Shown here: one piece after another, positions 2-13,072 of the stretch
Numbering within the stretch: the first letter of the stretch is position 1
Layout: each line of letters begins with the position of its first letter
From: a virus
Lineage: Duplodnaviria > Heunggongvirae > Uroviricota > Caudoviricetes
Strand: one strand, 5' to 3'
Length of the DNA: 13,072 nucleotides
Virus record (IMG/VR): IMGVR_UViG_2671180405_000011
Translations under genes and position numbers: made by a program
Notes under the pieces: generated by a model
Told to the model about the DNA's origin: nothing
Seen by the model: the letters and a program-made list of their open reading frames with translations, nothing else
Database searches by the model: none

Positions 2-319
2 CTGCTTAAAAAAAGAACAAATGGTAGTGTCCGCTATTGCCAGTACACCTCAGAGTTTTACACCACAACCCGCAAACCCTCTGCGGGAGATGTTGGTGCA
101 TATACGCAGGCAGAATGTAACTCAAGGTTTATTACAGGTATTCGCCTTGGTGGTCTGTTATCTGTTCAGACATGGAATGGTCCCGGATGGTCTGACAGGT
201 CAGGTTATGTTGTTACCGGTTCCGTTAACTCAAACAGAGATGAACTAATTGATACAACTCAGGCAAGGCCAATTCAGTATTGCATTAATGGGACGTGGTA
301 TAACGCGGGGAGTATTTAA
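2..319 (+). CDS. Tail fibre protein, C-terminal end of the currently expressed variable domain (Sv); 5' part lies outside the window
   Basis: Frame ending at TAA 317-319 translates to ...GYVVTGSVNSNRDELIDTTQARPIQYCINGTWYNAGSI*. Its C-terminus parallels the minus-strand segment 1413-2441 (...[12 protein letters not shown]). The stop lies 2 nt before the chaperone start, as in Mu S-U and P2 H-G. Confidence 0.75.
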   Translation: MLKKRTNGSVRYCQYTSEFYTTTRKPSAGDVGAYTQAECNSRFITGIRLGGLLSVQTWNGPGWSDRSGYVVTGSVNSNRDELIDTTQARPIQYCINGTWYNAGSI

Positions 320-321
320 CG

Positions 322-855
322 ATGATGCACTTAAAAAACATTTCTGCTGGTAATCCTGAAACAAAAGAGCAATACCAGCTAACGAAACAATTTAACATCA
401 AATGGCTTTATACAGAGGATGGGAAAAACTGGTATGAGGAACAAAAGAACTTTCAGCCTGATACGTTGAAAATGGTCTATGACCACAACGGCGTTATTAT
501 TTGTATTGAAAAGGATGTTTCAGCAATTAATCCGGAAGGCGCAAGCGTCGTTGAGGTTCCTGATATTACAGCAAATCGCCGGGCTGATATTTCAGGTAAA
601 TGGATGTTCAAAGATGGCGTAGTGATAAAGCGAACTTATACCGGGGAAGAGCAGAGGCAACAAGCGGAAAATGAAAAGCAAAGCCTGCTACAGCTCGTCA
701 GGGATAAAACCCAGCTATGGGACTCACAGCTACGGCTGGGCATTATTTCCGACGAGAATAAACAAAAATTAACCGAGTGGATGCTCTATGCGCAGAAGGT
801 CGAATCCACAGACACCTCCAGCCTGCCAGTAACGTTTCCCGAACAACCAGAATGA
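322..855 (+). CDS. Tail fibre assembly chaperone (Tfa / Mu U / P2 G family)
   Basis: 177-aa ORF immediately after the fibre stop. It shares the N-terminal ~125 aa with the minus-strand paralogue (MMHLKNI.AGN...[24 protein letters not shown]) and differs in the C-terminus, which is the typical Tfa architecture. Confidence 0.85.
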   Translation: MMHLKNISAGNPETKEQYQLTKQFNIKWLYTEDGKNWYEEQKNFQPDTLKMVYDHNGVIICIEKDVSAINPEGASVVEVPDITANRRADISGKWMFKDGVVIKRTYTGEEQRQQAENEKQSLLQLVRDKTQLWDSQLRLGIISDENKQKLTEWMLYAQKVESTDTSSLPVTFPEQPE

Positions 856-858
856 AAC

Positions 859-886
859 AAGGCCCGATATCGGGCCTTAATTTTTA
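859..886. terminator. Palindromic hairpin with T-tract between convergent chaperone genes (likely bidirectional terminator)
   Basis: Perfect 20-bp palindrome aaggcccgatatcgggcctt (859-878) followed by aattttta; sits between the stop of 322-855 (+) and the stop of 884-1411 (-). Confidence 0.5.
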
Positions 887-1411
887 CTCAGGCTTTTGTG
901 GCCATTCTGGCTTTGCCGTATCCACACGGCTGACCAGAACACTGTAGCGTTCCCATGCTTCCAGTCGTGTGCGTTCCTCGTCCGTCGCCATATTCAGCCT
1001 GACAGCGCGTTCCAGCGGCTGGATGACTGATTCAGCTTCGGAAAGCAATGCGGCCTTTTGTGATTCGGCCTGTTGTTGCTGTTCGTCAGCCGTATAAATC
1101 CGTTTAACCACAGCTCCGTCCTTAAACATCCACTTACCGGAATCATCAGCACGACGATTAGCTGTAATATCAGGAACCTCAACGACGCTATAACCTTCAG
1201 GGTTAAGCGTGGAGGCATCTTTGGTGATGGCGACAATAATATTATTTGCATCGTAAACAATCTTTATTGTGTCTGGCTGAAAGTTCTTCACTTCCTCATA
1301 CCAGTTTTTTCCGTCCTCAGAGTAAAGCCAGATGACTCCGTGCTTCTTTGTTAACTCATACTGCTCCACTGTTTTAGCATTACCTGCTTTTATGTTCTTT
1401 AAGTGCATCAT
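884..1411 (-). CDS. Alternative tail fibre assembly chaperone (U'-like), inside the invertible segment
   Basis: The minus-strand ORF is listed to 1444, but the homologous start [11 protein letters not shown] is the ATG at 1411, 1 nt after the TAA of the upstream Sv' segment (TAATATG). This mirrors the plus-strand Sv/U junction. Confidence 0.8.
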
Positions 1412-1412
1412 A

Positions 1413-2441
1413 TTAAATACTCGCCACATTATACCAAGTGCCATTTATATACTTTTGCACTGGCCTGTAATGAACGCCTGCAATATTATCGGCAGAGTTT
1501 TTTCCGGTATCCTGTACGTTAATCCCCGTCAGTACATAGCCTGACGGGCACTGAAAATTCCATGTTTGCCAGTTGTTCACTCCATAATATTGCTGTGAAC
1601 CAAGTCGAACATCTTTCACATATCTGGAATCAAAATTGCCATAGTTGCCGGGAATAACTTGCGAGCCGCAAAGCCAGTTCCCGTTATTATCCATGTACGC
1701 CTGACCATCGGTGCCATTGGCTGTCCTTGAGTTATTAATCATGTAGATGCCAAATTGCTTATTTCCCAGACCGCCAATCATAAATTTGCGGTCGGCATGG
1801 TCCTGACGGAGCAAAGCCTGAGCACCATCAGTGGATACCGCATTACGTCCCAAAATAACATTCTGGTCACGCATATGAATCCACATGCCGGTACTACTGT
1901 TAATTGCAAAACGGTTTGCAAATATATCCCCTGTAACATCAAGACCATGCCCCATGCTTATCCGGCCAGTTCTGAGATTAAGCGTAAAGGGGCGTAGTGG
2001 CCCTATATTACCATTTTCCCCTTCATTCTCTCGTGTAGGGATGATATGCAGGCATTCTTCAGAACGACGAAAAATGGCACCAAAAGATGAATTAAATATC
2101 CTCAGTGCATTGACTGTCGATATTTTCACTTCACTGCTGAAAAGGGCTTCAACAAGAACAGACAAAGCATTCCATTTAAGATTCATCAGGTCTTTAGGCC
2201 GGGTGCCAATGATGCGGTGTCTCCATTTGAAATATTCATTGCCGTTGTTGCCTGTTTCAAACCACATGTAGGAATCGGTGTCTGCATCCGAATTATTTTT
2301 AAACCCAATCTTTGCCCAGTCAGTATTTCGAATCCAGGCAAGGATTGAGTCGTTTTCAAAAGTAAGTCCACCGGACAACGTATCGCCATTTTTTTGCACG
2401 GCGTTACCAGCCTTGTTTACCGTTTCCTGTAAACCGAGGTT
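1413..2441 (-). CDS. Alternative tail fibre C-terminal segment (Sv'-like), start-less cassette expressed only after inversion
   Basis: Minus-strand frame is open from 2441 with no proper ATG (listed start is GTG). It ends ...[12 protein letters not shown], paralogous to the plus-strand fibre C-terminus, and the frame opens just inside the crossover site. Confidence 0.75.
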
Positions 2442-2449
2442 TTAGATAA
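2424..2449. other. Serine-invertase crossover site (gix/hix/pix-like), right end of invertible segment
   Basis: ttcctgtaaaccgaggttttagataa: a 26-bp imperfect palindrome with 12-bp half sites around a central GA, closely matching recalled gix/hix sites. It lies about 55 bp upstream of the invertase start. Confidence 0.7.
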
Positions 2450-2503
2450 TGGCCGTTTCCGGCCTGCATGGCATGATTTGCGCTTTTGGACGGGAGATTC
2501 AGC

Positions 2504-2760
2504 GTGCTGATTGGCTATGTAAGGGTATCAACAAATGACCAGAATACAGACCTGCAACGAAACGCTCTTGTTTGTGCAGGATATGAACAAATATTTGAAG
2601 ATAAATTAAGCGGAACAAGGACAGGCCGACCTGGATTAAAACGTGCTTTAAAGCGCCTTCAAAAAGGTGACGCACTGGTTGTCTGAAAACTGGACTGACT
2701 GGGTCACTGTATGCGGCATCTTGTCGTGCTGGTGGTGGAAGCCTAGAAAAAGTATCGGGT
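2504..2760 (+). pseudogene. DNA invertase remnant (Gin/Pin/Hin/Cin family), inactivated
   Basis: GTG 2504 with SD gggaga, then MLIGYVRVSTNDQNTDLQRNAL... identical to the intact copy for about 80 bp. Scattered substitutions follow, TGG becomes TGA at 2684-2686 (W to stop), then further in-frame stops and weak residual similarity (LD*LGHCMRHLVVLV vs LDRLGRSMKHLISLV) to about 2760. Confidence 0.7.
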
Positions 2761-2844
2761 GTTGCTGAACCGTGTTGATACATCAACTGCACCTGATATT
2801 GAGTGGCCTACGAACCCTGTCAGGGAGTAATCATTGGGATTATG

Positions 2845-2877
2845 CCGCAGCACGTCTTAAGCAAGAACGTGCTGCGG
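2845..2877. other. Perfect 10-bp stem hairpin (ccgcagcacg / cgtgctgcgg, 13-nt loop), possible terminator
   Basis: Lies 8 nt beyond the methyltransferase stop (minus strand) and is followed on the plus strand by a T6 run at 2888-2893. There is no immediately adjacent U-tract on either strand, so terminator function is uncertain. Confidence 0.3.
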
Positions 2878-2884
2878 TTGGATG

Positions 2885-3532
2885 CTATTTTTTCCCTGAA
2901 GCGGAAAACATTACTACAGTACCTTGAACCCTGGTTTTAACATTCTCGAAATGCTCTGAGAGTATATGTGTTAAGCCTTCTTCGGAATCTTTTGTGTTTG
3001 AAAAGATGCCTTTCTGATTGTAAATGCGCATCAGTTTTTGACCGAAGCTATTGTGCACAACTCCATCGCCAAGAATTGTGGCTCCGTATAGAGTTCCATC
3101 GTCAGTTAAGGCCTGCGCCGCATTGCGTATTACACAGCTTTTTGTAGATATATTTCCAGGCAGGCAGTGAAGAAGGTAAAACATGGAAATGGAATCAAAT
3201 TGACCATGTAACGCCGCGGGATAAGGTTCAAAAACATCATGGCTAATTTTATGTTTAATTTTTGATTCCCCAGCCCTTGTAGATGCCGCGTTCAGGCTAG
3301 CTTCGTTCAAATCCATTAAAGATATCAGACTACTCTCAGGTACGTGAGTAAGGTAAAACCCAGTTCCAACACCAATATCCAGATGGTTGTTACCTAAATG
3401 TTCCAGAAAGTGTGGAAGAAGGTGTTCCTTTGTAGGACATCCCCATGCAAGCCGATTTGATACTCCCAAAACCCACCAGTCATAAAGCTTTAGGGTAAGT
3501 GGTGTGTAAATTTTAGCCCCATCATCTGTGTT
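2885..3532 (-). pseudogene. Class I SAM-dependent methyltransferase, 5'-truncated (small-molecule/RNA type, not an obvious DNA methyltransferase)
   Basis: Minus-strand frame is open from the repeat junction at 3532 to TAG at 2885-2887. It carries the Rossmann motif I LDIGVGTGFY and a post-I acidic/hydrophobic segment. There is no ATG with an RBS; the listed start is an internal TTG and the frame runs into the repeat, so the N-terminus is missing. The region is visibly AT-richer than its flanks. Confidence 0.6.
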
Positions 3533-3768
3533 TAGTGATAAAGCGAACTTATACCGGGGAAGAGCAGAGGCAACAAGCGGAAAATGAAAAGCAAAGCCTG
3601 CTACAGCTCGTCAGGGATAAAACCCAGCTATGGGACTCACAGCTACGGCTGGGCATTATTTCCGACGAGAATAAACAAAAATTAACCGAGTGGATGCTCT
3701 ATGCGCAGAAGGTCGAATCCACAGACACCTCCAGCCTGCCAGTAACGTTTCCCGAACAACCAGAATGA
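3533..3768 (+). pseudogene. Tail fibre assembly chaperone, C-terminal fragment (copy 2; lacks first ~100 codons)
   Basis: Identical to 619-855 of the intact chaperone gene. Identity begins abruptly at 3533; upstream sequence is methyltransferase, not chaperone. Confidence 0.7.
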
Positions 3769-3771
3769 AAC

Positions 3772-3799
3772 AAGGCCCGATATCGGGCCTTAATTTTTA
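3772..3799. terminator. Copy 2 of the palindromic hairpin with T-tract
   Basis: Same sequence as 859-886, offset 2913. Confidence 0.45.
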
Positions 3800-4324
3800 C
3801 TCAGGCTTTTGTGGCCATTCTGGCTTTGCCGTATCCACACGGCTGACCAGAACACTGTAGCGTTCCCATGCTTCCAGTCGTGTGCGTTCCTCGTCCGTCG
3901 CCATATTCAGCCTGACAGCGCGTTCCAGCGGCTGGATGACTGATTCAGCTTCGGAAAGCAATGCGGCCTTTTGTGATTCGGCCTGTTGTTGCTGTTCGTC
4001 AGCCGTATAAATCCGTTTAACCACAGCTCCGTCCTTAAACATCCACTTACCGGAATCATCAGCACGACGATTAGCTGTAATATCAGGAACCTCAACGACG
4101 CTATAACCTTCAGGGTTAAGCGTGGAGGCATCTTTGGTGATGGCGACAATAATATTATTTGCATCGTAAACAATCTTTATTGTGTCTGGCTGAAAGTTCT
4201 TCACTTCCTCATACCAGTTTTTTCCGTCCTCAGAGTAAAGCCAGATGACTCCGTGCTTCTTTGTTAACTCATACTGCTCCACTGTTTTAGCATTACCTGC
4301 TTTTATGTTCTTTAAGTGCATCAT
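3797..4324 (-). CDS. Alternative tail fibre assembly chaperone (U'-like), copy 2
   Basis: Translation identical to 884-1411. Confidence 0.75.
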
Positions 4325-4325
4325 A

Positions 4326-5354
4326 TTAAATACTCGCCACATTATACCAAGTGCCATTTATATACTTTTGCACTGGCCTGTAATGAACGCCTGCAATATT
4401 ATCGGCAGAGTTTTTTCCGGTATCCTGTACGTTAATCCCCGTCAGTACATAGCCTGACGGGCACTGAAAATTCCATGTTTGCCAGTTGTTCACTCCATAA
4501 TATTGCTGTGAACCAAGTCGAACATCTTTCACATATCTGGAATCAAAATTGCCATAGTTGCCGGGAATAACTTGCGAGCCGCAAAGCCAGTTCCCGTTAT
4601 TATCCATGTACGCCTGACCATCGGTGCCATTGGCTGTCCTTGAGTTATTAATCATGTAGATGCCAAATTGCTTATTTCCCAGACCGCCAATCATAAATTT
4701 GCGGTCGGCATGGTCCTGACGGAGCAAAGCCTGAGCACCATCAGTGGATACCGCATTACGTCCCAAAATAACATTCTGGTCACGCATATGAATCCACATG
4801 CCGGTACTACTGTTAATTGCAAAACGGTTTGCAAATATATCCCCTGTAACATCAAGACCATGCCCCATGCTTATCCGGCCAGTTCTGAGATTAAGCGTAA
4901 AGGGGCGTAGTGGCCCTATATTACCATTTTCCCCTTCATTCTCTCGTGTAGGGATGATATGCAGGCATTCTTCAGAACGACGAAAAATGGCACCAAAAGA
5001 TGAATTAAATATCCTCAGTGCATTGACTGTCGATATTTTCACTTCACTGCTGAAAAGGGCTTCAACAAGAACAGACAAAGCATTCCATTTAAGATTCATC
5101 AGGTCTTTAGGCCGGGTGCCAATGATGCGGTGTCTCCATTTGAAATATTCATTGCCGTTGTTGCCTGTTTCAAACCACATGTAGGAATCGGTGTCTGCAT
5201 CCGAATTATTTTTAAACCCAATCTTTGCCCAGTCAGTATTTCGAATCCAGGCAAGGATTGAGTCGTTTTCAAAAGTAAGTCCACCGGACAACGTATCGCC
5301 ATTTTTTTGCACGGCGTTACCAGCCTTGTTTACCGTTTCCTGTAAACCGAGGTT
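4326..5354 (-). CDS. Alternative tail fibre C-terminal segment (Sv'-like), copy 2
   Basis: Translation identical to 1413-2441. Confidence 0.7.
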
Positions 5355-5362
5355 TTAGATAA
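5337..5362. other. Serine-invertase crossover site (gix/hix/pix-like), copy 2
   Basis: ttcctgtaaaccgaggttttagataa, identical to 2424-2449 and in the same (direct) orientation. Confidence 0.7.
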
Positions 5363-5416
5363 TGGCCGTTTCCGGCCTGCATGGCATGATTTGCGCTTTT
5401 GGACGGGAGATTCAGC

Positions 5417-6004
5417 GTGCTGATTGGCTATGTAAGGGTATCAACAAATGACCAGAATACAGACCTGCAACGAAACGCTCTTGTTTGTGCAGGATGTGAA
5501 CAAATATTTGAAGATAAATTAAGCGGGACAAAGACAGACCGACCGGGATTAAAACGCGCTTTAAAGCGCCTTCAAAAAGGTGACACGCTGGTTGTCTGGA
5601 AACTGGATCGCCTCGGGCGAAGCATGAAACATCTGATTTCTCTCGTCGGGGAACTACGGGAGCGAGGAATTAATTTTCGCAGTCTGACCGACAGCATAGA
5701 TACATCTTCTCCAATGGGGCGTTTTTTCTTCCACGTGATGGGTGCCCTGGCTGAAATGGAACGTGAATTAATTGTTGAACGTACACTGGCCGGACTGGCG
5801 GCAGCACGCGCACGGGGGCGCACAGGCGGACGTCGACCGAAGCTGACAAAAGAACAGCATGAGCAAATAGCAAGGCTGATCAAAAACGGGCACGACAGAA
5901 AACAACTGGCAATAATTTACGGCATTGGTATATCGACGATTTATCGTTACCACCCCGCAGGAGAATCAATCGGAACAATAGAGAAGAGTCAGGAAACAAA
6001 ATAA
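5417..6004 (+). CDS. Site-specific DNA invertase, small serine recombinase of the Gin/Pin/Hin/Cin family (intact)
   Basis: GTG 5417 preceded by SD gggaga. N-terminus MLIGYVRVSTNDQNTDLQ carries the catalytic Ser; VVWKLDRLGRS, SPMGRFFFHVMGALAEMERELIVERT and a C-terminal helix-turn-helix (GGRRPKLT...) follow. It sits immediately downstream of a gix-like site, as Mu gin and e14 pin do. Confidence 0.9.
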   Translation: MLIGYVRVSTNDQNTDLQRNALVCAGCEQIFEDKLSGTKTDRPGLKRALKRLQKGDTLVVWKLDRLGRSMKHLISLVGELRERGINFRSLTDSIDTSSPMGRFFFHVMGALAEMERELIVERTLAGLAAARARGRTGGRRPKLTKEQHEQIARLIKNGHDRKQLAIIYGIGISTIYRYHPAGESIGTIEKSQETK

Positions 6005-6036
6005 CCGCTAATCTGACCATTAGCGGTTTTTGTGTT
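6003..6036. terminator. Bidirectional rho-independent terminator between convergent invertase and gpU genes
   Basis: Stem aaccgctaat / attagcggtt with loop ctgacc, followed by ttttgtgtt on the plus strand and by TTATTTT on the minus strand. Confidence 0.6.
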
Positions 6037-6039
6037 AAA

Positions 6040-6528
6040 TCAGAACAACCCTTTAACTGAACTGGCCGCGCTGTTAAGGGATGATGTTACCTTATCTTTG
6101 AAGCCGGACAGCATATCGCTGAACGATGAGGATTGCAGGCGCTCCCGCAAATCCTCATCACAGCGTTCAAGAGTCAGTGAAAATTCTATCTTTTTCGCCT
6201 TACCGTAGCGATCAAACTCGGAGCGGGTCGTATTCGTTTCGGTCAGGACATACATGCCGTAAATCTGCCCGACGCCATCAATCAGAGGCCAGGGTCGTCC
6301 TGTATACGCCTGCGTGGTCAGCAGCGACAGCGACACTTCGCCACCTGTAATTTCAGGATAAAGCACACCAGAAAGAACGATGCGCTCATCACCTGCACCG
6401 ATATACTGCCAGCTTGCCGAACGGTTAACGCGTTCATTTTTCACATGCCGCCAGCTTTTGTTTTGCTGTAACTGCTGATGCGGCAATGTACGCAGCTCAA
6501 AAACAAACATGCCGTAGATCATCATCAT
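6040..6528 (-). CDS. U: Phage tail protein gpU (P2 U family)
   Basis: Matches recalled P2 gpU: short N-terminal Met run, then GxFVF...SWRH...RVNRS...GVLYPEITGG...LIDG. The listed ORF starts at 6534, but SD GAGGAG spacing favours the third ATG at 6528. It follows T on the same strand. Confidence 0.85.
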   Translation of the reverse strand: MMMIYGMFVFELRTLPHQQLQQNKSWRHVKNERVNRSASWQYIGAGDERIVLSGVLYPEITGGEVSLSLLTTQAYTGRPWPLIDGVGQIYGMYVLTETNTTRSEFDRYGKAKKIEFSLTLERCDEDLRERLQSSSFSDMLSGFKDKVTSSLNSAASSVKGLF

Positions 6529-6540
6529 GGCCATGACTCC

Positions 6541-9357
6541 TCAATCTTTATCGTAAAAACTGCCACGCCCGGCACGGGCGCGCCGTTCCATTTCTGCCCT
6601 GACCATTTCACCGACCAGTTTCGCCAGTTCGCGGGGATTCTGCGTAACAACGTTATGCAGATGAACATGAATTTCACCACCAAATCCGGAGGCAACAGGC
6701 TCCCGGTTACGGGAAGTTACAGGAACTGATGCCACTGGAGAGCGTATGGCCTCCGCCACCGGGCGGGAGCTGGCCGCAACAACAGGGACCAGCGCCGGAG
6801 GCAGCGGAGCCGGGACCACGGGTGTGATATTAATTGCGGGGGCAGGCTTACTGACCTGCGCAATCTTCCGCTCCTGCCACTCCCCACGAACAGCAAGTGC
6901 GCGGGGCAGGTTCTTAAAGACAATATCGCCGGGGCCAATGCGTTTTTTCGTCTCATCAACCAGCTTACCTGTGTTATCAGCAATTTTGCTGAGTCTGCGT
7001 AGCGTCCCGGTATTGCTGTCTGTGAGCGGTTTGTTGTCTTTGGGTTTATCACCTCCGGTGCCATTGCCATTTTCCACAGGCTTCGGCGGATTGATTTTCG
7101 CCAGGTCCCCCTGAAGCAAGGCAACCTTGTCCTGAAGAATGGCCGCACGCTGTGCGTCTTCGATTTTCTTGCGCGCCCTTTCCGCTTCATCCGGAAGGAC
7201 GCCAAGTTTTTCAAGTATCCACGCCAGCGTATCCAGTAGCATTTTTGCAGGTGTCAGAACAAGTTGTAACGCACCGCCAAGAACGTTACCGAATATCTCG
7301 CCAGCACTGGCACATTTATCCAGCGTTTCCTTGCTGGACTCCATCGGTGACAGCAGCGATTTAAACCAGTTAAAGACCTGAATAATCCCATCGCGCACGA
7401 CATCAAAAACAGGGCCAAACCGTTCAAAGGTTTCGCGCAACGGGGTCAGCCTTTCCATAATCCCGCTGAACACCCCGGCAAAAAATGCCCTGATGGGATC
7501 CCAGTATTTCCAGATAAGAACGGCAGCTCCGGCAAGCGCAGCCACGATAAGACTAACCGGACTGAACAGCGCCCCGATAGCGCCACCAAGTAAAGAAACG
7601 GAACCCGTCACCATTCCCCATAATGCAGGCAGAACCCTGACAACATTCATTGATTCGGTCAGGAGAGAAAAACCGAGACGCAACGTAGCCAGCTTCCCGT
7701 GAAGCACCCCAATAACCAGAGACAACGAACCAACCGTTGCTGTTGTCGCCAGCAGTGCGCCTCCCGCTATCAGTAACTGGCGCGTCAGTGCCGGGTGGGC
7801 CTGCGCCAGCGCCGTCACCTTTGAGACAACCCGCGTGAGCCACTGCGTGACAGAACGCAGCGGACCGTCAACCAGATCACTGATGCGAATACGCAGACCT
7901 TCCCATGCACTGCCGAGTGATTTCAGGTTGCCATCAAGGTTATTGGCCATAACCTTTGCCGTGCGTTCTGCCTCACCGCGCGCGCCTTCAAGTTCTTTTC
8001 TCAGTTTGGCTAAGAAGCCGTCACCTGCCGCATCAACGAGGCCCATAAATGATGTGAAAGCCTCTTCTCCGGCAATGTCCTTAAAGAACGATACCCGGTC
8101 AACCTCCCCGTATTTGCGGGTGGCTTTATAGAGATCGGCCAGCACATTCTCCATCGGGCGCATTTTGCCTTTGGCGTCAGCAACTGACACCCCCAGCTCT
8201 TTCAGTGCTTCTGCCGCTGCCTTTGGCGGTGATGACAGATTGGCCAGGCTTTTACGCAACGCTGTACCTGCATCACTCCCCCTGATACCCATCTTCGCCA
8301 GCACGCCCGCCATCGCTGCGGCCTGCTCCAGCGATATTCCCAGCTTACCCGCCACCGGACCTGCATATTTCATGGTTTCGCCCAGTGCGCGAAGGTCAGT
8401 GTTGGTACGGGTAAACGCTGCGGTAAGTGTGTCACCGACCCGGTCCATCTGGTCAGCAGAGAGGCCGAACTGCGTCAGGATATTGGAACCAATATCCGCC
8501 GTCTCGCCGAGGTCCATACCGCCAGCCGTTGCCATGCTCAGCACGCCGGGAAGCGCAGCCTGAATGGCCTGCGGTGTGAAACCAGCCATTGCAAGAAATG
8601 CCTGTCCACTGGCGGCATCGCCTGCGGTGAACTGCGTTTCAGAGCCAAGTTTTAACGCCTGCTCACGCAGCGCCTTAAACTGCGGGCTGTTTTTATCGAT
8701 TCGCGTCAGTGCCTGAACACGGGACATCTCTTTCCCGAACCCGATAGCGGGCTGCAAAAAACGCCCGGCAGCATAGCCGCCCGCTGCCGCCGCACCTGTT
8801 GCCAGCGCACCACCTGTTTTCAGTTTTCCCGCTGTTTCCTGCGCGCGTGAATACCGCTCACGCGCCTGCGTTACACGCGCAAGCGCCCGCCGTTCGCGTT
8901 CAAGCTGGTTGTTGTATTGTCCGGTGCGTCTGATGGCCTGCTGGATGGTGTTATCGCTGCCTGTCAGGGAAATGCCGTGGCGTTTCAGCTCTCCGCCAAG
9001 TTCCCGCATTTTCTGAATTTCCCGTGTGCGCGATTCATTCAGGCGTTCAAGCCGGGTGCTTAACTGCTGCATCAGCTTTTGTTGTTTTTCGCTGAGCACT
9101 GTACCCGTGCGTTGTAACTGATTAAGGGCGTTAAGCTGGCGTCGTGCTTTCACGATGCCCGCATCCGCTTTACTGACAGCGTCACGGGCGCGCTCAAATG
9201 AACGCGCCTGACGCTCGAGATTTTTGATCGCCCCCTGCGTTCGCTGGATGGAGTCACCAAACTGCCCCATCAGGCGGCGGGCGTTTTCGGCAGGCCGGGT
9301 CAGCCTGTCAACGGCGCTGAAAGCGACCCGGATATCAAGAGTCTTCATTGTCTGCAT
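6541..9357 (-). CDS. T: Tail tape measure protein (P2 gpT-like)
   Basis: About 940-aa ORF rich in Ala/Gly/Leu with coiled-coil N-terminal third and hydrophobic central segments. It sits between E/E' and U as in P2. The start is ambiguous (GTG 9384, ATG 9357 or ATG 9348). Confidence 0.85.
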   Translation of the reverse strand: MQTMKTLDIRVAFSAVDRLTRPAENARRLMGQFGDSIQRTQGAIKNLERQARSFERARDAVSKADAGIVKARRQLNALNQLQRTGTVLSEKQQKLMQQLSTRLERLNESRTREIQKMRELGGELKRHGISLTGSDNTIQQAIRRTGQYNNQLERERRALARVTQARERYSRAQETAGKLKTGGALATGAAAAGGYAAGRFLQPAIGFGKEMSRVQALTRIDKNSPQFKALREQALKLGSETQFTAGDAASGQAFLAMAGFTPQAIQAALPGVLSMATAGGMDLGETADIGSNILTQFGLSADQMDRVGDTLTAAFTRTNTDLRALGETMKYAGPVAGKLGISLEQAAAMAGVLAKMGIRGSDAGTALRKSLANLSSPPKAAAEALKELGVSVADAKGKMRPMENVLADLYKATRKYGEVDRVSFFKDIAGEEAFTSFMGLVDAAGDGFLAKLRKELEGARGEAERTAKVMANNLDGNLKSLGSAWEGLRIRISDLVDGPLRSVTQWLTRVVSKVTALAQAHPALTRQLLIAGGALLATTATVGSLSLVIGVLHGKLATLRLGFSLLTESMNVVRVLPALWGMVTGSVSLLGGAIGALFSPVSLIVAALAGAAVLIWKYWDPIRAFFAGVFSGIMERLTPLRETFERFGPVFDVVRDGIIQVFNWFKSLLSPMESSKETLDKCASAGEIFGNVLGGALQLVLTPAKMLLDTLAWILEKLGVLPDEAERARKKIEDAQRAAILQDKVALLQGDLAKINPPKPVENGNGTGGDKPKDNKPLTDSNTGTLRRLSKIADNTGKLVDETKKRIGPGDIVFKNLPRALAVRGEWQERKIAQVSKPAPAINITPVVPAPLPPALVPVVAASSRPVAEAIRSPVASVPVTSRNREPVASGFGGEIHVHLHNVVTQNPRELAKLVGEMVRAEMERRARAGRGSFYDKD

Positions 9358-9864
9358 TCCCGCTGCGAAGTGCCGCCCGCTCACGCCAGCTAACCACTTC
9401 GCCGGGCGTCATCATGAAGATTTCGGCGGGCGACCAGTTAAAAATGGCGGCAATATCCGCCACAAAGTCTTCTATGTGCTCAAAGCACACAACCGTGATC
9501 AGGCTTCCGTCGCCTGTTCGTTCTTCTCGCCAGAGTCCGCACCGCTCAAAAAATTTACGGCAACCACACATAACTGAATAAAGTCACGGGATGCCATTTT
9601 TTTGATCGTCACTTCATCCAGTCGCGGTGATGTCACGCGTGACAGCAGCGTAAACATGGATTCCGCTTTCAAATTCAGCACATCAGACAGCGACAAATCT
9701 CGCAGAGATCCAGCCTGCTCAATAGCCCCGGTGATCTCCACATACGTGATTTTTTCGCCGCCTCGCTCAATTGGTTGGGTAAGTTTTACGCCACGCTCAC
9801 TGGTTTCTTTCACAGTGTCAGCAACGACCGTGTTTTCGGTATCGATGTTTTTCGTCTCTTTCAT
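9335..9864 (-). CDS. E+E': gpE+E' fusion chaperone made by programmed -1 ribosomal frameshift
   Basis: Slippery heptamer T TTT TTG on the minus strand (plus coordinates 9547-9553) in the E frame (AAT TTT TTG). The -1 frame then stays open for about 70 codons (ERCGLWREERTGDG...NADNEDS*) to 9335, overlapping the start of T, as with P2 E/E' and lambda G/GT. Confidence 0.7.
9499..9864 (-). CDS. E: Tail assembly chaperone gpE (zero-frame product)
   Basis: ATG 9864 with strong SD AAAGGAG at 7-nt spacing; 121 aa ending ...ASRDFIQLCVVAVNFLSGADSGEKNEQATEA, between tube and tape measure genes. Confidence 0.8.
   Translation of the reverse strand: MKETKNIDTENTVVADTVKETSERGVKLTQPIERGGEKITYVEITGAIEQAGSLRDLSLSDVLNLKAESMFTLLSRVTSPRLDEVTIKKMASRDFIQLCVVAVNFLSGADSGEKNEQATEA
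9547..9553 (-). promoter_or_regulatory. Programmed -1 frameshift slippery site (T TTT TTG)
   Basis: Plus strand reads caaaaaa; its reverse complement TTTTTTG is in X XXY YYZ register in the E frame. Confidence 0.65.
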
Positions 9865-9918
9865 CAGGAAACTCCTTTCAGTCAGAGGCGACGCACTGCG
9901 CCGCCTGCATATTACTTA

Positions 9919-10431
9919 TCAGCCAAGCCCGAGCGCGGAACGGATGCGATCGGGCACAATGTCCCTGCCGTCCTTCCGGTAAATGAAGTTCAGCAGGTCA
10001 ATCTCCCACAACGGGCGATCGTTAACACTCAGCTTGTAGTAGGTGTTTTTAATGGCGTAAGTGTGTGATGTGGCTTCGCCCTGTTTGGCTTCCCCCATAT
10101 CAATTTCCGTCACACGTCCGCGCATTTCGACTTCATACAGGTCGCTTTCAGCGTCGGTGTAGTATTCACCCGCAAAACGCAGCAGCGTACCGTCAATCGT
10201 GCCGCCATACTTAAGGAACAGCTCACGAACTGCGCCCCCCATGACAAAGCTCGCATCAAGCGCGGAGTCATCCAGGCCGAGATCAATACTTACCGCTCCC
10301 ATCATGCCACCACCCCGGTAGCTGTCGGTTTTGCGCGTCAGCTTAGGCAGAGTGACGGACGTCACCTTACCCACTTCGTTTTCACCATCCACAAACAGCG
10401 TAAAAAAGCGAAGATGTTTTGGTACAGCCAT
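9919..10431 (-). CDS. FII: Tail tube protein (P2 FII family)
   Basis: 170 aa with VTLPKLTRK...YRGGGM...IDLGLDD...GTIDG..LRFAG...VEMRGR, matching recalled P2 FII. Its start ATG overlaps the FI stop (TGATG), and SD GGGAGG lies upstream. Confidence 0.9.
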   Translation of the reverse strand: MAVPKHLRFFTLFVDGENEVGKVTSVTLPKLTRKTDSYRGGGMMGAVSIDLGLDDSALDASFVMGGAVRELFLKYGGTIDGTLLRFAGEYYTDAESDLYEVEMRGRVTEIDMGEAKQGEATSHTYAIKNTYYKLSVNDRPLWEIDLLNFIYRKDGRDIVPDRIRSALGLG

Positions 10432-11615
10432 CAGGCACCTCCCAGCACCGCAAATGCGGGACCAAAGAATTCATCAGTAAACGACTGGTAAAGCTCCATG
10501 TCTTCCAGCGGGGGAACAGGCGTATATTTGTAGCGAATACGCACGCGCCCCTGACGTAAATTCGTGGTGCCGTTATCCACCACGTCATACCAGCACGACG
10601 CCCCAATCAGTTTCCCGGCAGTAACCAGTGAATCCAGTTTTGCCCTGATGGCACCGATAACATCCTTCACGTTCGCAGGCGTCAGTGGACTGTCGATGGT
10701 TTCAAACTGCGCTTCCGCAATTGAATCAGCCAGCACCTGTGCGGTTCGGGTATACACCTCAAAGATGTAGGCGTTCGTTTCCGGTGTGCGGTTGCCCCAG
10801 AAGCGGAACCCGTTGCGACGAATAATGGTCGTGATTTCTTTGTTGTTGAGGCTGTTGGCATCACTGTCTTCGGCCTGCAACGACCAGAACACATGCCTGG
10901 ACATCCCCAGCACATTTTTAACCGGAACGTTGGACAGCGATTTGTGCCAGCCCTGCTCATGGTCAATGTACGCACGAAGGCCGCACGCATAGGCAGGCGC
11001 GGGGAACGTTTCGTTTTTGCCACTTTTCGGGTTGTAGGCGATGAAGTCCGGCCATAAGAGCATCACCTCACGTTCGTTGAATTTCTGGCGGTAGGTAATT
11101 GCCTCAGCCATCGTGTTACAGTCATGACATGAGGCATACACAAACGCGCGCAGTTTACCCGCAATCACGCACAGGGATTTTGTCACCGCCTCCGTGTCCA
11201 GCTCCGGCGCGGCCAGAATACGCGGACGGTATCCGATGCTTTCATCCTGCTCTGCAACAAGCAGCGCATACATCCCCGTATAGCTGCCGTCAGATTCAGA
11301 ACCACCGATAACCAGTTGATCCTGCGTTTTTCCGTCTTCTTCTTTGTGTTCAGCCACGCGAACGACGATCACCTTTGTGCTCACCTGGTCTGCGATGGCC
11401 TTAAGCGCACGATAAAGCGTCCCCGTTGTTCCGCATTTTCCCAGCACGTCATTGACGCGGGGCAGCAGTGTGGGCTTGTTCAGCGGGAACAGCTCCGCGT
11501 CCGCATCATCCGCCGTTGCCACGATACCGATAACGCTGGAATCAACATCGTTAATCGCTGTTACCAGGTCGGTATTTTCCGTAACACGGGCACCATGAAA
11601 ACGAGTTTCACTCAT
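10431..11615 (-). CDS. FI: Contractile tail sheath protein (P2 FI family)
   Basis: 394 aa with ...DADAE.FPLNKP...KLRAF.Y...WPDF...GLRA.IDHEQGWHK.LSNV...IRR.GFRFWGNRT...NYTRTAQV.AD...YDYTPVPPLE, matching recalled P2 FI. SD AAGGGG upstream of ATG 11615. Confidence 0.9.
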   Translation of the reverse strand: MSETRFHGARVTENTDLVTAINDVDSSVIGIVATADDADAELFPLNKPTLLPRVNDVLGKCGTTGTLYRALKAIADQVSTKVIVVRVAEHKEEDGKTQDQLVIGGSESDGSYTGMYALLVAEQDESIGYRPRILAAPELDTEAVTKSLCVIAGKLRAFVYASCHDCNTMAEAITYRQKFNEREVMLLWPDFIAYNPKSGKNETFPAPAYACGLRAYIDHEQGWHKSLSNVPVKNVLGMSRHVFWSLQAEDSDANSLNNKEITTIIRRNGFRFWGNRTPETNAYIFEVYTRTAQVLADSIAEAQFETIDSPLTPANVKDVIGAIRAKLDSLVTAGKLIGASCWYDVVDNGTTNLRQGRVRIRYKYTPVPPLEDMELYQSFTDEFFGPAFAVLGGA

Positions 11616-11772
11616 AGCTTCAACCCCTTGTATCCGTTAAATGATTCGGCAACAATCATCACCCACCACGCGCGTAATCTCACCCCTGCGCCATTCTCCC
11701 GCCACGGCGACAACAAAAAGCAGTAACCCCCTCCGCACGCACATGCGACCATGCCACACAGGGAGGGAGCAG

Positions 11773-12882
11773 ATGACCGACACCACCATGCAATTGCTCA
11801 GTCAGGGCACAGACCCCGTGAAAATGCCGGATTTTGATATTCTCGCGGAGGGTAAAACGCTGTCAGGCGTGGCAGAGCGCCTGATGAGCCTGTCACTGAC
11901 CGACAACCGGGGATTTGAGGCGGACCAGCTCACCATCACGCTGGATGATGCGGATGGTCAGTTGCAGCTACCGCCACGGGGCGCGCGCCTGACGGTTCTC
12001 ATTGGCTGGAAGGGAGAACCGCTGACAGAAAAAGGCACTTACATTGTTGATGAAATCGCTCACGAAGGACCGCCGGACAGGCTGACTGTTTCAGCCAGAA
12101 GCGCAGATTTTCGGGCTGAATTTAACGTTAAACGTGAGGTGTCCTGGCATGATGTGACCGTTGAGCGTGTGGTATCCGCCATCGCTCATCGGTATGGTCT
12201 GAAACCGCAAATCAGCGAAATGCTGATGGATATCGAAATCGACCACGCCGACCAGACCGAAGAAAGCGACATGTCCTTCCTTACGCGCATGGCGGAAATG
12301 CTGGGCGCAATCACCACGGTAAAAAGCGGTAATCTGTTATTCATCATGCCCGGTGGTGGCGTGAACGCACAGGGCCAGCCGTTGCCCTCGTTCGCCATCA
12401 CACGCAGCAGCGGCGATCGCCATCAGTTCCGCATTGCTGACCGCGAAGCGTATACGGGGGTACGCGCTTACTGGCTTGATCTTAATTACGGGAAAAAGAA
12501 AAAAGTCAGCGTGAAACGCCGCAAACCGTCAAAACCAAAAAAGGAGAAAAGCAGCAGCCGGGAAGGCGACTATATGGAAGGTGCGGAAGGCAACGTGTTT
12601 GTGTTACGCAAAACTTATCAGAACGAGCAGGCAGCAAGACGTGCAGCGGCGGCAAAGTGGCAGCAGCTACAACGCGGAGCCGCATCATTCTCCATCACAC
12701 TGGCGCATGGACGTGCAGAACTCTACCCCGAAATGCATGGCACGGTAACAGGATTTAAAAGCGAGATTGATAATCAGGACTGGATTATTGCAAAAGCCGA
12801 GCACACCATTGATAACAGCGGCTTTACCACGCAGCTTGAGCTTGAGGCAAAAATCCCGGAATGGATAGCAGAAACAGAGTGA
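11773..12882 (+). CDS. D: Phage tail protein gpD (P2 late control gene D family)
   Basis: ATG 11773 preceded by SD gggagggag. The 369-aa product has a Lys-rich low-complexity stretch and a C-terminus ...DNSGFTTQLELEAKI, consistent with recalled gpD. The longer listed ORF from 11641 has no RBS and a low-complexity N-terminus. Confidence 0.8.
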   Translation: MTDTTMQLLSQGTDPVKMPDFDILAEGKTLSGVAERLMSLSLTDNRGFEADQLTITLDDADGQLQLPPRGARLTVLIGWKGEPLTEKGTYIVDEIAHEGPPDRLTVSARSADFRAEFNVKREVSWHDVTVERVVSAIAHRYGLKPQISEMLMDIEIDHADQTEESDMSFLTRMAEMLGAITTVKSGNLLFIMPGGGVNAQGQPLPSFAITRSSGDRHQFRIADREAYTGVRAYWLDLNYGKKKKVSVKRRKPSKPKKEKSSSREGDYMEGAEGNVFVLRKTYQNEQAARRAAAAKWQQLQRGAASFSITLAHGRAELYPEMHGTVTGFKSEIDNQDWIIAKAEHTIDNSGFTTQLELEAKIPEWIAETE

Positions 12883-13072
12883 GCAACTTAAATGTATTAA
12901 CTCAGAACGGATCAACACACTCACAACATAGAGTCAATATAGCTGCTCGCTTTGTTCCAGCAAGGATGCCTATTTCTAAGGAAAAACAGAGCAGAAACAT
13001 ATGGTGTTTTCCTACCTGACATCAGGGGTGGTAGACTGGCCCCCTGAATCTCCAGACAACCAGTATCACTTA

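Follow-up and report, generated by a model that had tools for sequence, protein, structure and literature searches.

A Gin/Pin-type tail-fibre switch of a Shigella sonnei-type P2-like prophage, carrying a probable duplication-insertion

The window, the whole 13,072-bp stretch of DNA analysed here, most probably holds the Gin/Pin-type tail-fibre host-range switch of an S. sonnei-type P2-like prophage that was hit by a duplication-insertion; we put the probability of this reading at roughly 65%. What results is a scar left by rearrangement at the level of the strain, in a prophage that is decaying, and no new kind of system. Compared with a single-cassette prophage, the window has gained 2,913 bp, made up of 950 bp of lambdoid DNA and a second copy of the 1,963 bp upstream of it. 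Its features are as follows.

1-52, +: right end of IS600 (IS3 family; IS600 matches), inserted in the Sv_A segment
53-319, +: Sv_A 3' end, the variable C-terminal part of tail fibre A
322-855, +: U_A, tail-fibre assembly chaperone, 177 aa, intact (Pfam Caudo_TAP, E = 7e-37)
620-2582: repeat copy 1, 1,963 bp (identity scan at offset 2913)
859-878 (copy 2, 3772-3791): palindromic, terminator-like hairpin between the convergent U_A and U_B
884-1411 (copy 2, 3797-4324), -: U_B, alternative tail-fibre assembly chaperone, 175 aa (Pfam Caudo_TAP)
1413-2399 (copy 2, 4326-5312), -: Sv_B, alternative C-terminal segment of the tail fibre, silent orientation, frame of 328 codons
2424-2449, +: crossover site gixR1 (TTCCTGTAAACCGAGGTTTTAGATAA); gixR2 is 5337-5362
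2482-2582: J1, the 101-bp interval containing the homologous crossover between a P2-like invertase gene and a lambdoid pin pseudogene
2504-2686, +: dead invertase gene, a hybrid P2/lambdoid pin', 60 codons and then a stop
2522-2593 (copy 2, 5435-5506): putative Fis-type enhancer equivalent, homologous to P1 cin nt 19-90
2583-3532: 950-bp insert from the right end of a Rac-like lambdoid prophage
2733-2879, +: tail-fibre-assembly gene fragment of the lambdoid remnant (PGAP annotation in loci L003 and L004)
2885-3533, -: class I SAM-dependent methyltransferase gene (Pfam Methyltransf_12/23/25)
3532-3533: J2, where the methyltransferase 5' end meets U_A nt 299 in an illegitimate junction (microhomology 1 nt, T)
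3533-5495: repeat copy 2, with a U_A 3' fragment (3533-3768), U_B, Sv_B, gixR2 and the invertase 5' end
5417-6004, +: intact Gin/Pin-family serine invertase, 195 aa (Pfam Resolvase and HTH_7)
6040-13031, -: P2-like tail block (gpU, tape measure, E/E', tube, sheath), with gpD on the + strand
13032-13072, +: left end of a probable IS2, judged by its terminal sequence, inserted as in S. sonnei 53G

The repeated tail-fibre cassette

The identity scan found copy 1 and copy 2 to be the same over all 1,963 bp, with 0 mismatches at an offset of 2,913, an extent that makes a chance origin impossible. The repeat begins at nt 299 (codon 100) of U_A and runs through the first 79 nt of the invertase gene, whose GTG start lies at 2504 in copy 1 and at 5417 in copy 2; between these ends it contains U_B and Sv_B, both on the minus strand, and the 26-bp crossover site. 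The original prediction, a mismatch-free direct repeat of ~1.96 kb, 2913 bp apart, comprising a chaperone 3' part, U', Sv', a crossover site and ~80 bp of invertase start, is thereby confirmed. Mapping the blocks by alignment (620-2582 against 3533-5495) placed every mismatch beyond the block and none inside it, and the abrupt loss of identity that had been described from 2583/5496 was equally evident: to the right, identity is 92% over 2583-2694 (mismatches at 2583, 2614, 2619, 2625, 2632, 2644, 2672, 2674 and 2686), 49% over 2695-2745 and ~30%, the random level, farther on, and to the left it is random as well (27% over 520-619).

A dead invertase gene does follow copy 1 and an intact one copy 2, as had been proposed (60 codons versus 195 aa). 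The dead gene matches Pfam Resolvase in its N-terminal part only, and its product is identical to a 60-aa pin remnant that 7,443 index blocks list. The intact invertase, identical in product to that of locus L005 (annotated WP_000905057.1), shares 81% identity with Mu Gin and 72% with P1 Cin and conserves the active-site Ser. The switch has been active, because both inversion states occur among related isolates. The 26-bp gixR site is present in two exact copies (0 expected) and differs at one base from the aligned Mu G-segment boundary sequence; 2522-2593 and 5435-5506 may function as enhancers, an assignment drawn from the P1 annotation and alignment. Gene calls in L016 and other loci likewise give U_B 175 aa, and the 328-aa Sv_B product in related loci has a Gp34_trimer match.

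Copy 1 had been credited with the full cassette, which is incorrect. IS600 severs Sv_A from its own 5' part at 52/53, the reading frame leaving the window leftward, and no left crossover site lies within the window; in the single-copy reference that site is ~630 bp past the window start. Positions 1-60 match IS600 copies in 2,670 E. coli genomes, and 1-53 are 100% identical to the IS600 end in locus L025. The Sv_A 3' end is 100% identical to L016, L019 and FDAARGOS_943, and L016 has Sv_A uninterrupted.

One P2-like prophage and a lambdoid fragment

With 2583-5495 removed, the window has 0 mismatches over ~10,070 bp to the single-copy locus L016. Each copy, taken together with its outer flank (53-2582 for copy 1 and the DNA to its left, 3533-13031 for copy 2 and the DNA to its right), forms a contiguous, mismatch-free stretch of one and the same single-cassette prophage, so that both copies are the P2-like prophage's own Gin/Pin-type invertible segment. 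This prophage adjoins pheST-ihfA in S. sonnei-type genomes. Its tape-measure protein, listed in 576 index blocks, is that of S. sonnei 53G (HE616528.1); 3533-13072, including the tail block, is 100.000% identical to L019; and the gpD reading frame spans 11641-12882 (+), the gene called in related loci being 369 aa. Once the 2,913 bp are taken out, 53G, L016 and L019 all match over ~10 kb without mismatch, and the IS2 that follows gpD in the window is inserted as in 53G (transposase genes of 121 aa and 301 aa, called in L017 and L018, are in line with IS2); these three have one cassette, and the window differs from them by the duplication-insertion and by an IS600 placed elsewhere. In other relatives IS600 lies within the crossover site or at U_A nt 404-406.

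Between the copies lies foreign DNA, 950 bp of it, which bears out the earlier view that this is not a simple tandem duplication. Positions 2482-3532 match CP032523.1 without mismatch, and 2560-3533 are 99.6-99.7% identical to the best E. coli matches; at least 80% of the latter segment is present in ~1,400 E. coli genomes, and in E. coli, lambdoid prophages located near trp/ompW or potB have the insert sequence at their right end. CP032523.1 carries both donors, in the same orientation and ~0.55 Mb apart. Rac-like lambdoid remnants of E. coli and Shigella have the order Stf-Tfa-Tfa'-Stf'-pin pseudogene-tfa fragment-methyltransferase, whereas the window has no more than 950 bp of this, starting within pin' and reaching as far as the methyltransferase gene's third codon; the lambdoid cassette, ~82-85% identical only and located elsewhere, upstream of pin', is missing, as is the DNA past the methyltransferase start. 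The assembly-gene fragment is 89% identical to a second fragment across the methyltransferase gene in L003. Compared with the full 222-aa gene in L003 and CP032523.1, the methyltransferase gene lacks the initial 8 nt, ATG included, together with the region upstream; with pin dead and this gene lacking a start codon, the insert would have no working gene.

These flanks bear directly on gene conversion, by which an older, diverged second cassette would have lain beside the first and had its central 1.96 kb overwritten. The original prediction had favoured such homogenisation of two older paralogous cassettes, and the sharp edge at 2582/2583, inside a homologous gene, does resemble the end of a conversion tract. 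However, no diverged cassette is left on either side: to the left of copy 1 the same prophage goes on without mismatch, and to the left of copy 2 stands the non-homologous methyltransferase gene, joined at a single base. Because this is not a diverged chaperone N-terminus, the left edge is an illegitimate junction rather than a tract end. The 82-85% identical lambdoid cassette lies elsewhere, and a comparison with related prophages found the single-cassette form to be the rule among the related loci retrieved. The flank comparison thus contradicts gene conversion, which we consider scarcely credible. The other earlier suggestion, a mosaic of two related prophages, holds for the joint inside the invertase gene, but not for two related, cassette-bearing partners: the P2-like prophage was joined to a cassette-less right-end fragment (pin'-tfa'-methyltransferase) of a lambdoid remnant.

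Two junctions and the origin of the arrangement

Both partners have the same sequence throughout J1, which takes in the start of the invertase gene and the greater part of the enhancer-equivalent region; where it lies within the invertase gene, even Mu gin matches it at 100% identity. At the diagnostic positions 2454, 2460 and 2481 copy 1 carries the P2-type base, and from 2583 onward every such site is lambdoid-type; the switch from one type to the other therefore falls between 2481 and 2583, not at the crossover-site centre (2436/2437). J1 is a homology-driven crossover. J2, by contrast in type, falls at the T-run of the methyltransferase 5' end, fuses the ATG-less gene to chaperone codon 100 and is an illegitimate join.

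The invertase itself might have recombined a lambdoid site or quasi-site with the prophage site, as Cin does at quasi-cix sites; both partners have a crossover site adjoining their invertase or pin gene, and an active invertase is at hand. Yet the P2-type bases at 2454, 2460 and 2481 in copy 1, to the right of the site centre, put the exchange 45-146 bp away from that centre, and inspection of J2 by eye revealed no convincing resemblance to the 26-bp site, making this origin very improbable.

The junction types suggest a single replication or repair template switch as the most economical origin. A nascent strand on the P2-like prophage would have strayed from its template, at the conserved 5' end of the invertase gene, to the homeologous pin pseudogene, copied 950 nt of lambdoid DNA and then returned to the prophage at a point 1,963 bp back from where it had left; an unequal exchange between both prophages, followed by an illegitimate deletion, would give the same product in two steps. 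A 2.9-kb circle made of the lambdoid fragment and the 1,963-bp segment, integrating in Campbell fashion through RecA recombination anywhere within the 1,963 bp, would likewise yield exactly the observed insert flanked by direct repeats of the homology, and in lambdoid remnants, too, a chaperone-gene fragment is directly repeated on either side of the methyltransferase gene, a hint of similar events in the past. Such a circle, however, must already hold J1 and J2, so that the problem is only pushed back one step, and our sequence searches found no such circle or donor arrangement; we regard this route as improbable.

An assembly artefact is a weightier alternative, if still an unlikely one. With 52 bp of IS600 at its start and 41 bp of IS2 at its end, the window has the look of a single short-read contig, IS ends bounding it on both sides as they do such contigs; its A-R-B-R-C order could then be the assembler's loop traversal, and the zero mismatches could reflect copy collapse in the assembly graph. 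One P2-like cassette and one lambdoid pin'-methyltransferase remnant would have been falsely threaded, the 101-bp invertase 5' stretch that they share merging in a de Bruijn graph and loop resolution writing the repeat twice. J1 lies exactly in that common stretch, a typical place for mis-threading, and a collapsed node would leave the copies perfectly identical. Neither J1 nor J2 was found in 5,426 complete E. coli genomes, GTDB representatives, IMG/VR or JGI metagenomes (Shigella complete genomes being outside the direct search), nor did these databases yield a long contig or complete genome carrying the tandem arrangement. Against an artefact, the partners at J2 share only 1 nt, so no common k-mer could have made that junction, which requires real junction reads; and if both J2 and the normal U_A 5' junction exist, the repeat is present at least twice, for which a tandem path is simplest. 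Contig ends in independent draft assemblies also support J2: contigs L006 and L007 begin exactly at the fork, window 620/3533. L007 covers 620-2440 at 100% identity and ends at the last base common to the invertase-side and Sc-side half sites; in L006 the repeat runs into the Sc side with no fork at the crossover site, which is not fully reconciled with two copies there.

If the duplication-insertion is real, it would give the switch an extra crossover site and an extra enhancer-equivalent stretch, both in direct orientation. The intact downstream invertase could probably still flip the segment against the left site outside the window, and RecA recombination between the repeats would remove the insert. 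With fibre A already disrupted by IS600, the duplication would be a neutral scar in a decaying prophage.

Relation to known inversion systems

The cassette belongs to the family of the Mu G segment (Gin), the P1/P7 C segment (Cin), the e14 P segment (Pin) and the Shigella boydii B segment (PinB). As in these, two alternative fibre C-terminal segments, each with its own chaperone gene, lie in opposite orientation; with Mu it further shares the 26-bp crossover site, one base off, a gene for a serine invertase (81% identical to Gin) whose transcription leads away from the segment and an identical first ~100 nt of that gene, holding the enhancer-equivalent region. It differs from all of them in lying in a P2-like prophage (Peduoviridae, Xuanwuvirus-type) whose tail block follows the invertase gene in inverted orientation, in its two copies of the right 1,963 bp, separated by foreign DNA, in its two directly oriented right-hand sites and in a fibre A broken by IS600.

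Multiple-inversion systems, such as Min of plasmid p15B and the shufflons, have more than two crossover sites for one recombinase, as does this cassette; unlike theirs, its extra site comes from a recent duplication, is direct to its twin and brings no new fibre variant, and the analysis turned up no sign of further arrangements. Tail-fibre genes are also mosaic through recombination at conserved linker sequences, and the joint described here likewise brings unrelated phage types together, at a short sequence that Mu, P1, P2-like and lambdoid elements have in common; in contrast to classical mosaicism, the event is recent, confined to one genome lineage and coupled to a duplication.

Exact repeat, unlike boundaries

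Compared base by base with a shift of 2,913 bp, positions 620-2582 and 3533-5495 of the window agree at 1,963 of 1,963 positions, a block of which a repeat finder saw only part, and identity is random to the left of 620/3533. To the right, 2583-2694 matches 5496-5607 at 92% over 112 bp, with mismatches at 2583, 2614, 2619, 2625, 2632, 2644, 2672, 2674 and 2686; the next 51 bp (2695-2745) match at 49%, and sequence farther right at random. The original prediction had described this pattern accurately, as an exact repeat at this offset with identity then falling, and was also right that a simple tandem duplication does not account for it: of the 2,913 bp, the copies have just 1,963 in common, and nothing that follows copy 2 corresponds to the other 950.

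Features of the duplicated region
620-2582 and 3533-5495: copy 1 and copy 2 of the repeat, holding the next five features
U_A strand: 3' part of the U_A chaperone gene, from nt 299
opposite strand to U_A: U_B, a second chaperone gene
opposite strand to U_A: Sv_B, a tail-fibre C-terminal segment, 328 codons
2424-2449 and 5337-5362: 26-bp crossover site, two exact copies against none expected
end of the repeat: start of a serine invertase gene, first 79 nt
2583-3532: insert between the copies, holding the next three features
start of the insert: remainder of the dead invertase gene, stop after 60 codons
2733-2879: chaperone-gene fragment
minus strand: class I SAM-dependent methyltransferase gene
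5417-6004: intact invertase gene, 195 aa, running on downstream of copy 2

The right boundary (J1) falls where P2-type and lambdoid-type sequences can be aligned, from the crossover site into the invertase gene. Copy 1 carries the P2-type base at diagnostic sites 2454, 2460 and 2481 and the lambdoid base at every distinguishing site from 2583 onward, which confines the exchange to 2482-2582, 101 bp identical in both partners; the abrupt fall in identity therefore marks a crossover where conserved sequence ends. Within these 101 bp, the portion belonging to the invertase gene matches even Mu gin exactly and overlaps the putative enhancer region. A crossover at the centre of the gix site (2436/2437) was rejected on the P2-type bases at 2454, 2460 and 2481, and, because the exchange lies away from that centre, homology and not invertase action drove it. 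Haggard-Ljungquist in 1992 and Sandmeier in 1994 are said to have described mosaic joints at conserved sequences in tail-fibre/invertase modules. Beyond J1, the pin pseudogene in the insert loses its likeness to the intact invertase gene at 2695, with homology gone near 2745, and this drop may mark a second, older mosaic or decay boundary within the lambdoid remnant.

The left boundary (J2, 3532/3533), where the methyltransferase gene meets U_A, is an illegitimate junction. The methyltransferase gene of lambdoid remnants runs on as ...CTGTGTTTGTTTTCAT; the window reads ...CTGTGTTT up to J2 and AGTGATAAAG beyond it, and copy 1 at the equivalent position reads ...GATGGCGT and then AGTGATAAAG, a single T being common to the J2 partners. 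The methyltransferase gene has lost its first 8 nt, ATG included, and is fused to codon 100 of U_A. Inspection of the sequence at J2 for a quasi-gix site found no convincing similarity. Given an illegitimate J2, the repeat's left end is merely the start of the second copy and not the decaying identity of older homologues, and this is the main argument against the gene conversion of older paralogous cassettes that the original prediction had favoured.

Evidence for and against a real tandem structure

The window starts 52 bp inside the right end of an IS600 (1-52) and stops 41 bp inside the left end of an IS2 (13032-13072), which suggests that insertion sequences broke a short-read assembly at both ends and that the window is one entire contig of it. 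An assembler working from short reads can output a loop twice, leaving copies that are identical by construction, and both the IS-bounded form, typical of a complete short-read contig, and the position of J1, at a point where two loci merge in the assembly graph, fit such an artefact. J2 cannot arise in this way, however, its partners having one shared base, and it is supported independently by the ends of two draft contigs, L006 and L007. In an exact-protein look-up, a 77-aa open reading frame, a U_A fragment whose start lies two bases past J2, is called solely on contigs whose first base is 620/3533, namely L006 and L007 (four protein records). L007 covers 620-2440 at 100% identity, its left end being the first base shared by both predecessors and its right end the last that the half sites on the invertase side and on the Sc side have in common, as expected if a conservative assembler meets a two-copy repeat that has both junctions. 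Neither contig has IS bases at its ends, and an IS600 at 619/620 was rejected as the cause of the breaks, the IS600 copies of relatives lying at 725-727 and 2439-2445.

Other contig ends lie close to J2. Twelve draft contigs with the lambdoid pin'-methyltransferase arrangement (L008-L012) end 5-21 bp before its position, at 3512-3528, and a look-up of the 194-aa methyltransferase fragment returned only contigs that end at 3512-3528 and are joined to lambdoid cassettes, a result judged uninformative. The same 194-aa protein, annotated in complete S. sonnei genomes, was set aside as evidence for J2 and judged a matter of start-codon choice, because genome CP032523.1 has the full 222-aa gene.

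J2 itself, sought with 39-nt and 30-nt patterns (the 30-mer being CATCATCTGTGTTTAGTGATAAAGCGAACT) and by BLAST of 3250-3820, is absent from complete E. coli genomes, GTDB representatives, IMG/VR and JGI metagenomes; the best match to J1 or to the left half as a whole (53-3533; 140-nt hybrid pattern) reaches only ~94%. The duplication-insertion is therefore new in the sense that neither junction was found in the searched collections, a set outside which complete Shigella genomes lie. Searching the literature for S. sonnei invertase/tail-fibre prophages and for three genome accessions turned up nothing specific. We consider the tandem structure probably real, at a probability of about two in three.

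The prophage and its invertible switch

Downstream of the invertase gene lies a P2-type tail block encoding gpU, the tape measure, E/E', tube, sheath and gpD, and the assignment to a P2-like prophage (Peduoviridae, Xuanwuvirus-type) draws on a Pfam Phage_P2_GpU match and on the gene sets of seven related loci (L016-L022). From the cassette through the tape measure, the best match in the phage collection is Escherichia phage 520873, classified as Xuanwuvirus. The exact tape-measure protein occurs in 576 index blocks, including the complete genome HE616528.1 (Shigella sonnei 53G), where the prophage adjoins pheST-ihfA; this P2-like prophage is already present in public S. sonnei genomes. Among single-cassette relatives, L019 is 100.000% identical to 3533-13072, and the window minus 2583-5495 aligns to L016 without a mismatch over ~10,070 bp, so that both copies and the outer flanks are this prophage's own sequence.

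The system belongs to the Gin/Cin/Pin/Hin class of invertible tail-fibre switches. The intact invertase, which is 81% identical to Gin of Mu and 72% to Cin of P1, keeps the Y-V-R-V-S-T motif and combines an N-terminal resolvase catalytic domain with its active-site Ser (Pfam Resolvase, E = 1.5e-50) with a C-terminal helix-turn-helix (HTH_7, E = 1.8e-13). Alternative fibre C-termini lie in opposite orientation with matching chaperones, Sv_A/U_A on the plus strand and U_B/Sv_B on the minus, both chaperones matching Caudo_TAP, and the cassette as a whole shows homology to invertible segments of Mu, P1, P7, D108 and SfMu, the G and C segments among them, and also matches P2-like phages classed as Xuanwuvirus. 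The two identical crossover sites in the window are both right-hand sites in direct orientation; in the single-copy L016 the site pair is inverted and ~3.05 kb apart, and the left site, outside the window, would lie ~630 bp past the window start. Homology of 2522-2593 to cin nt 19-90, the annotated P1 enhancer, points to a putative Fis-dependent enhancer equivalent, and the homologous stretch is present in both copies, inside the gene segment that matches Mu gin exactly.

The invertase gene stands beside Sv_B in four related loci (L016, L019, L022, L033) and beside Sv_A in three (L018, L020, L021). The presence of both orientations among otherwise near-identical isolates indicates that the switch has been active in the lineage, a result that holds for the lineage and not for the window's own genome. 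Sv_A is cut by IS600 at 52/53, so only fibre B could still be made.

Several smaller observations concern the same region. In four S. sonnei-type loci (L034, L036, L040, L041) IS600 lies inside the right crossover site, equivalent to 2439-2445, and in three of the four (L034, L036, L040) additionally in U_A, equivalent to 725-727; counting the Sv_A insertion in the window, IS600 has entered the switch at three different sites. In L019 (9927-11897) the fibre gene is called as 377 aa and 247 aa with a ~90-bp gap at the crossover site. Perfect palindromic hairpins lie between convergent genes at 859-878 and 3772-3791 (U_A/U_B) and at 6003-6028 (invertase/gpU), each with a terminator-like score on both strands. 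Base composition and promoter scans of the window revealed nothing discriminating.

Source of the insert and possible routes

The only homology that 2583-3532 shows to the cassette lies near the 5' end of the invertase gene, where it fades. The stretch 2560-3533 is 99.6-99.7% identical to its best E. coli matches, with at least 80% of it present in ~1,400 complete E. coli genomes, where it forms the right end of lambdoid prophages adjoining trp/ompW or potB in the order Lom, tail fibre, two chaperone genes, silent fibre segment, pin remnant, chaperone fragment and methyltransferase. Genome CP032523.1 is identical to the window over 2482-3532 and also carries the P2-like prophage, ~0.55 Mb off, the two having the relative orientation seen in the window. 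Against the window's cassette, that of the lambdoid remnant itself shows only 82-85% identity, and on this ground we rejected it as the identity of copy 1. The insert appears to carry no functional gene.

The order of the structure, prophage to 2582, lambdoid from 2583 to 3532 and prophage again from 620, requires a join by homology, a second that is illegitimate, and a step back by 1,963 bp. All three could be taken at once if replication or repair switched template onto the homeologous pin pseudogene and returned to the prophage behind its starting point. Unequal exchange between the two prophages on sister chromosomes, giving a large duplication most of which was then lost by illegitimate deletion, would yield the same product, but through a rarer sequence of events. 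A circle bearing both junctions could also integrate by homology, although this merely moves the question back.

Gin/Cin-family invertases are efficient only on inverted sites. The duplication would add one more crossover site and one more enhancer-equivalent stretch, both in direct orientation to the first, and loss of the repeat is consequently expected by RecA recombination and not by the invertase. We think it unlikely, taken whole, that a single template-switching event between two prophages about 0.5 Mb apart, guided by the conserved, enhancer-bearing 5' end of invertase genes, produced the structure and left a working three-site inversion network (the left site, gixR1 and gixR2). Were this whole reading correct, the larger inversion would put the methyltransferase gene, which lacks a start, downstream of the late fibre operon, and the window would offer a natural case in bacteria of templated insertion accompanied by duplication and of the way in which Min and other multi-site inversion systems might arise.

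The duplication-insertion is a strain-level rearrangement of a known kind with little import beyond its lineage, and its use lies in the exact anatomy of two junctions and in an assembly caveat. It offers a clean example of prophages of one genome swapping pieces, in which one homologous and one illegitimate joint result in a duplication plus an insert. It also warns those who annotate or assemble Shigella and E. coli prophages that a repeat, a shared 101-bp stretch and IS copies make mis-assembly easy. The junction may be of use in marking the lineage, since contig ends at the same junction appear in a few other drafts.

In lambdoid remnants, direct repeats of a chaperone-gene 3' fragment (L003 7188-7271 and 8144-8320; compare 2733-2879 in the window), ~89% identical, flank the methyltransferase gene; this is a scar older than the window's but alike in form, an insert within a duplicated target.
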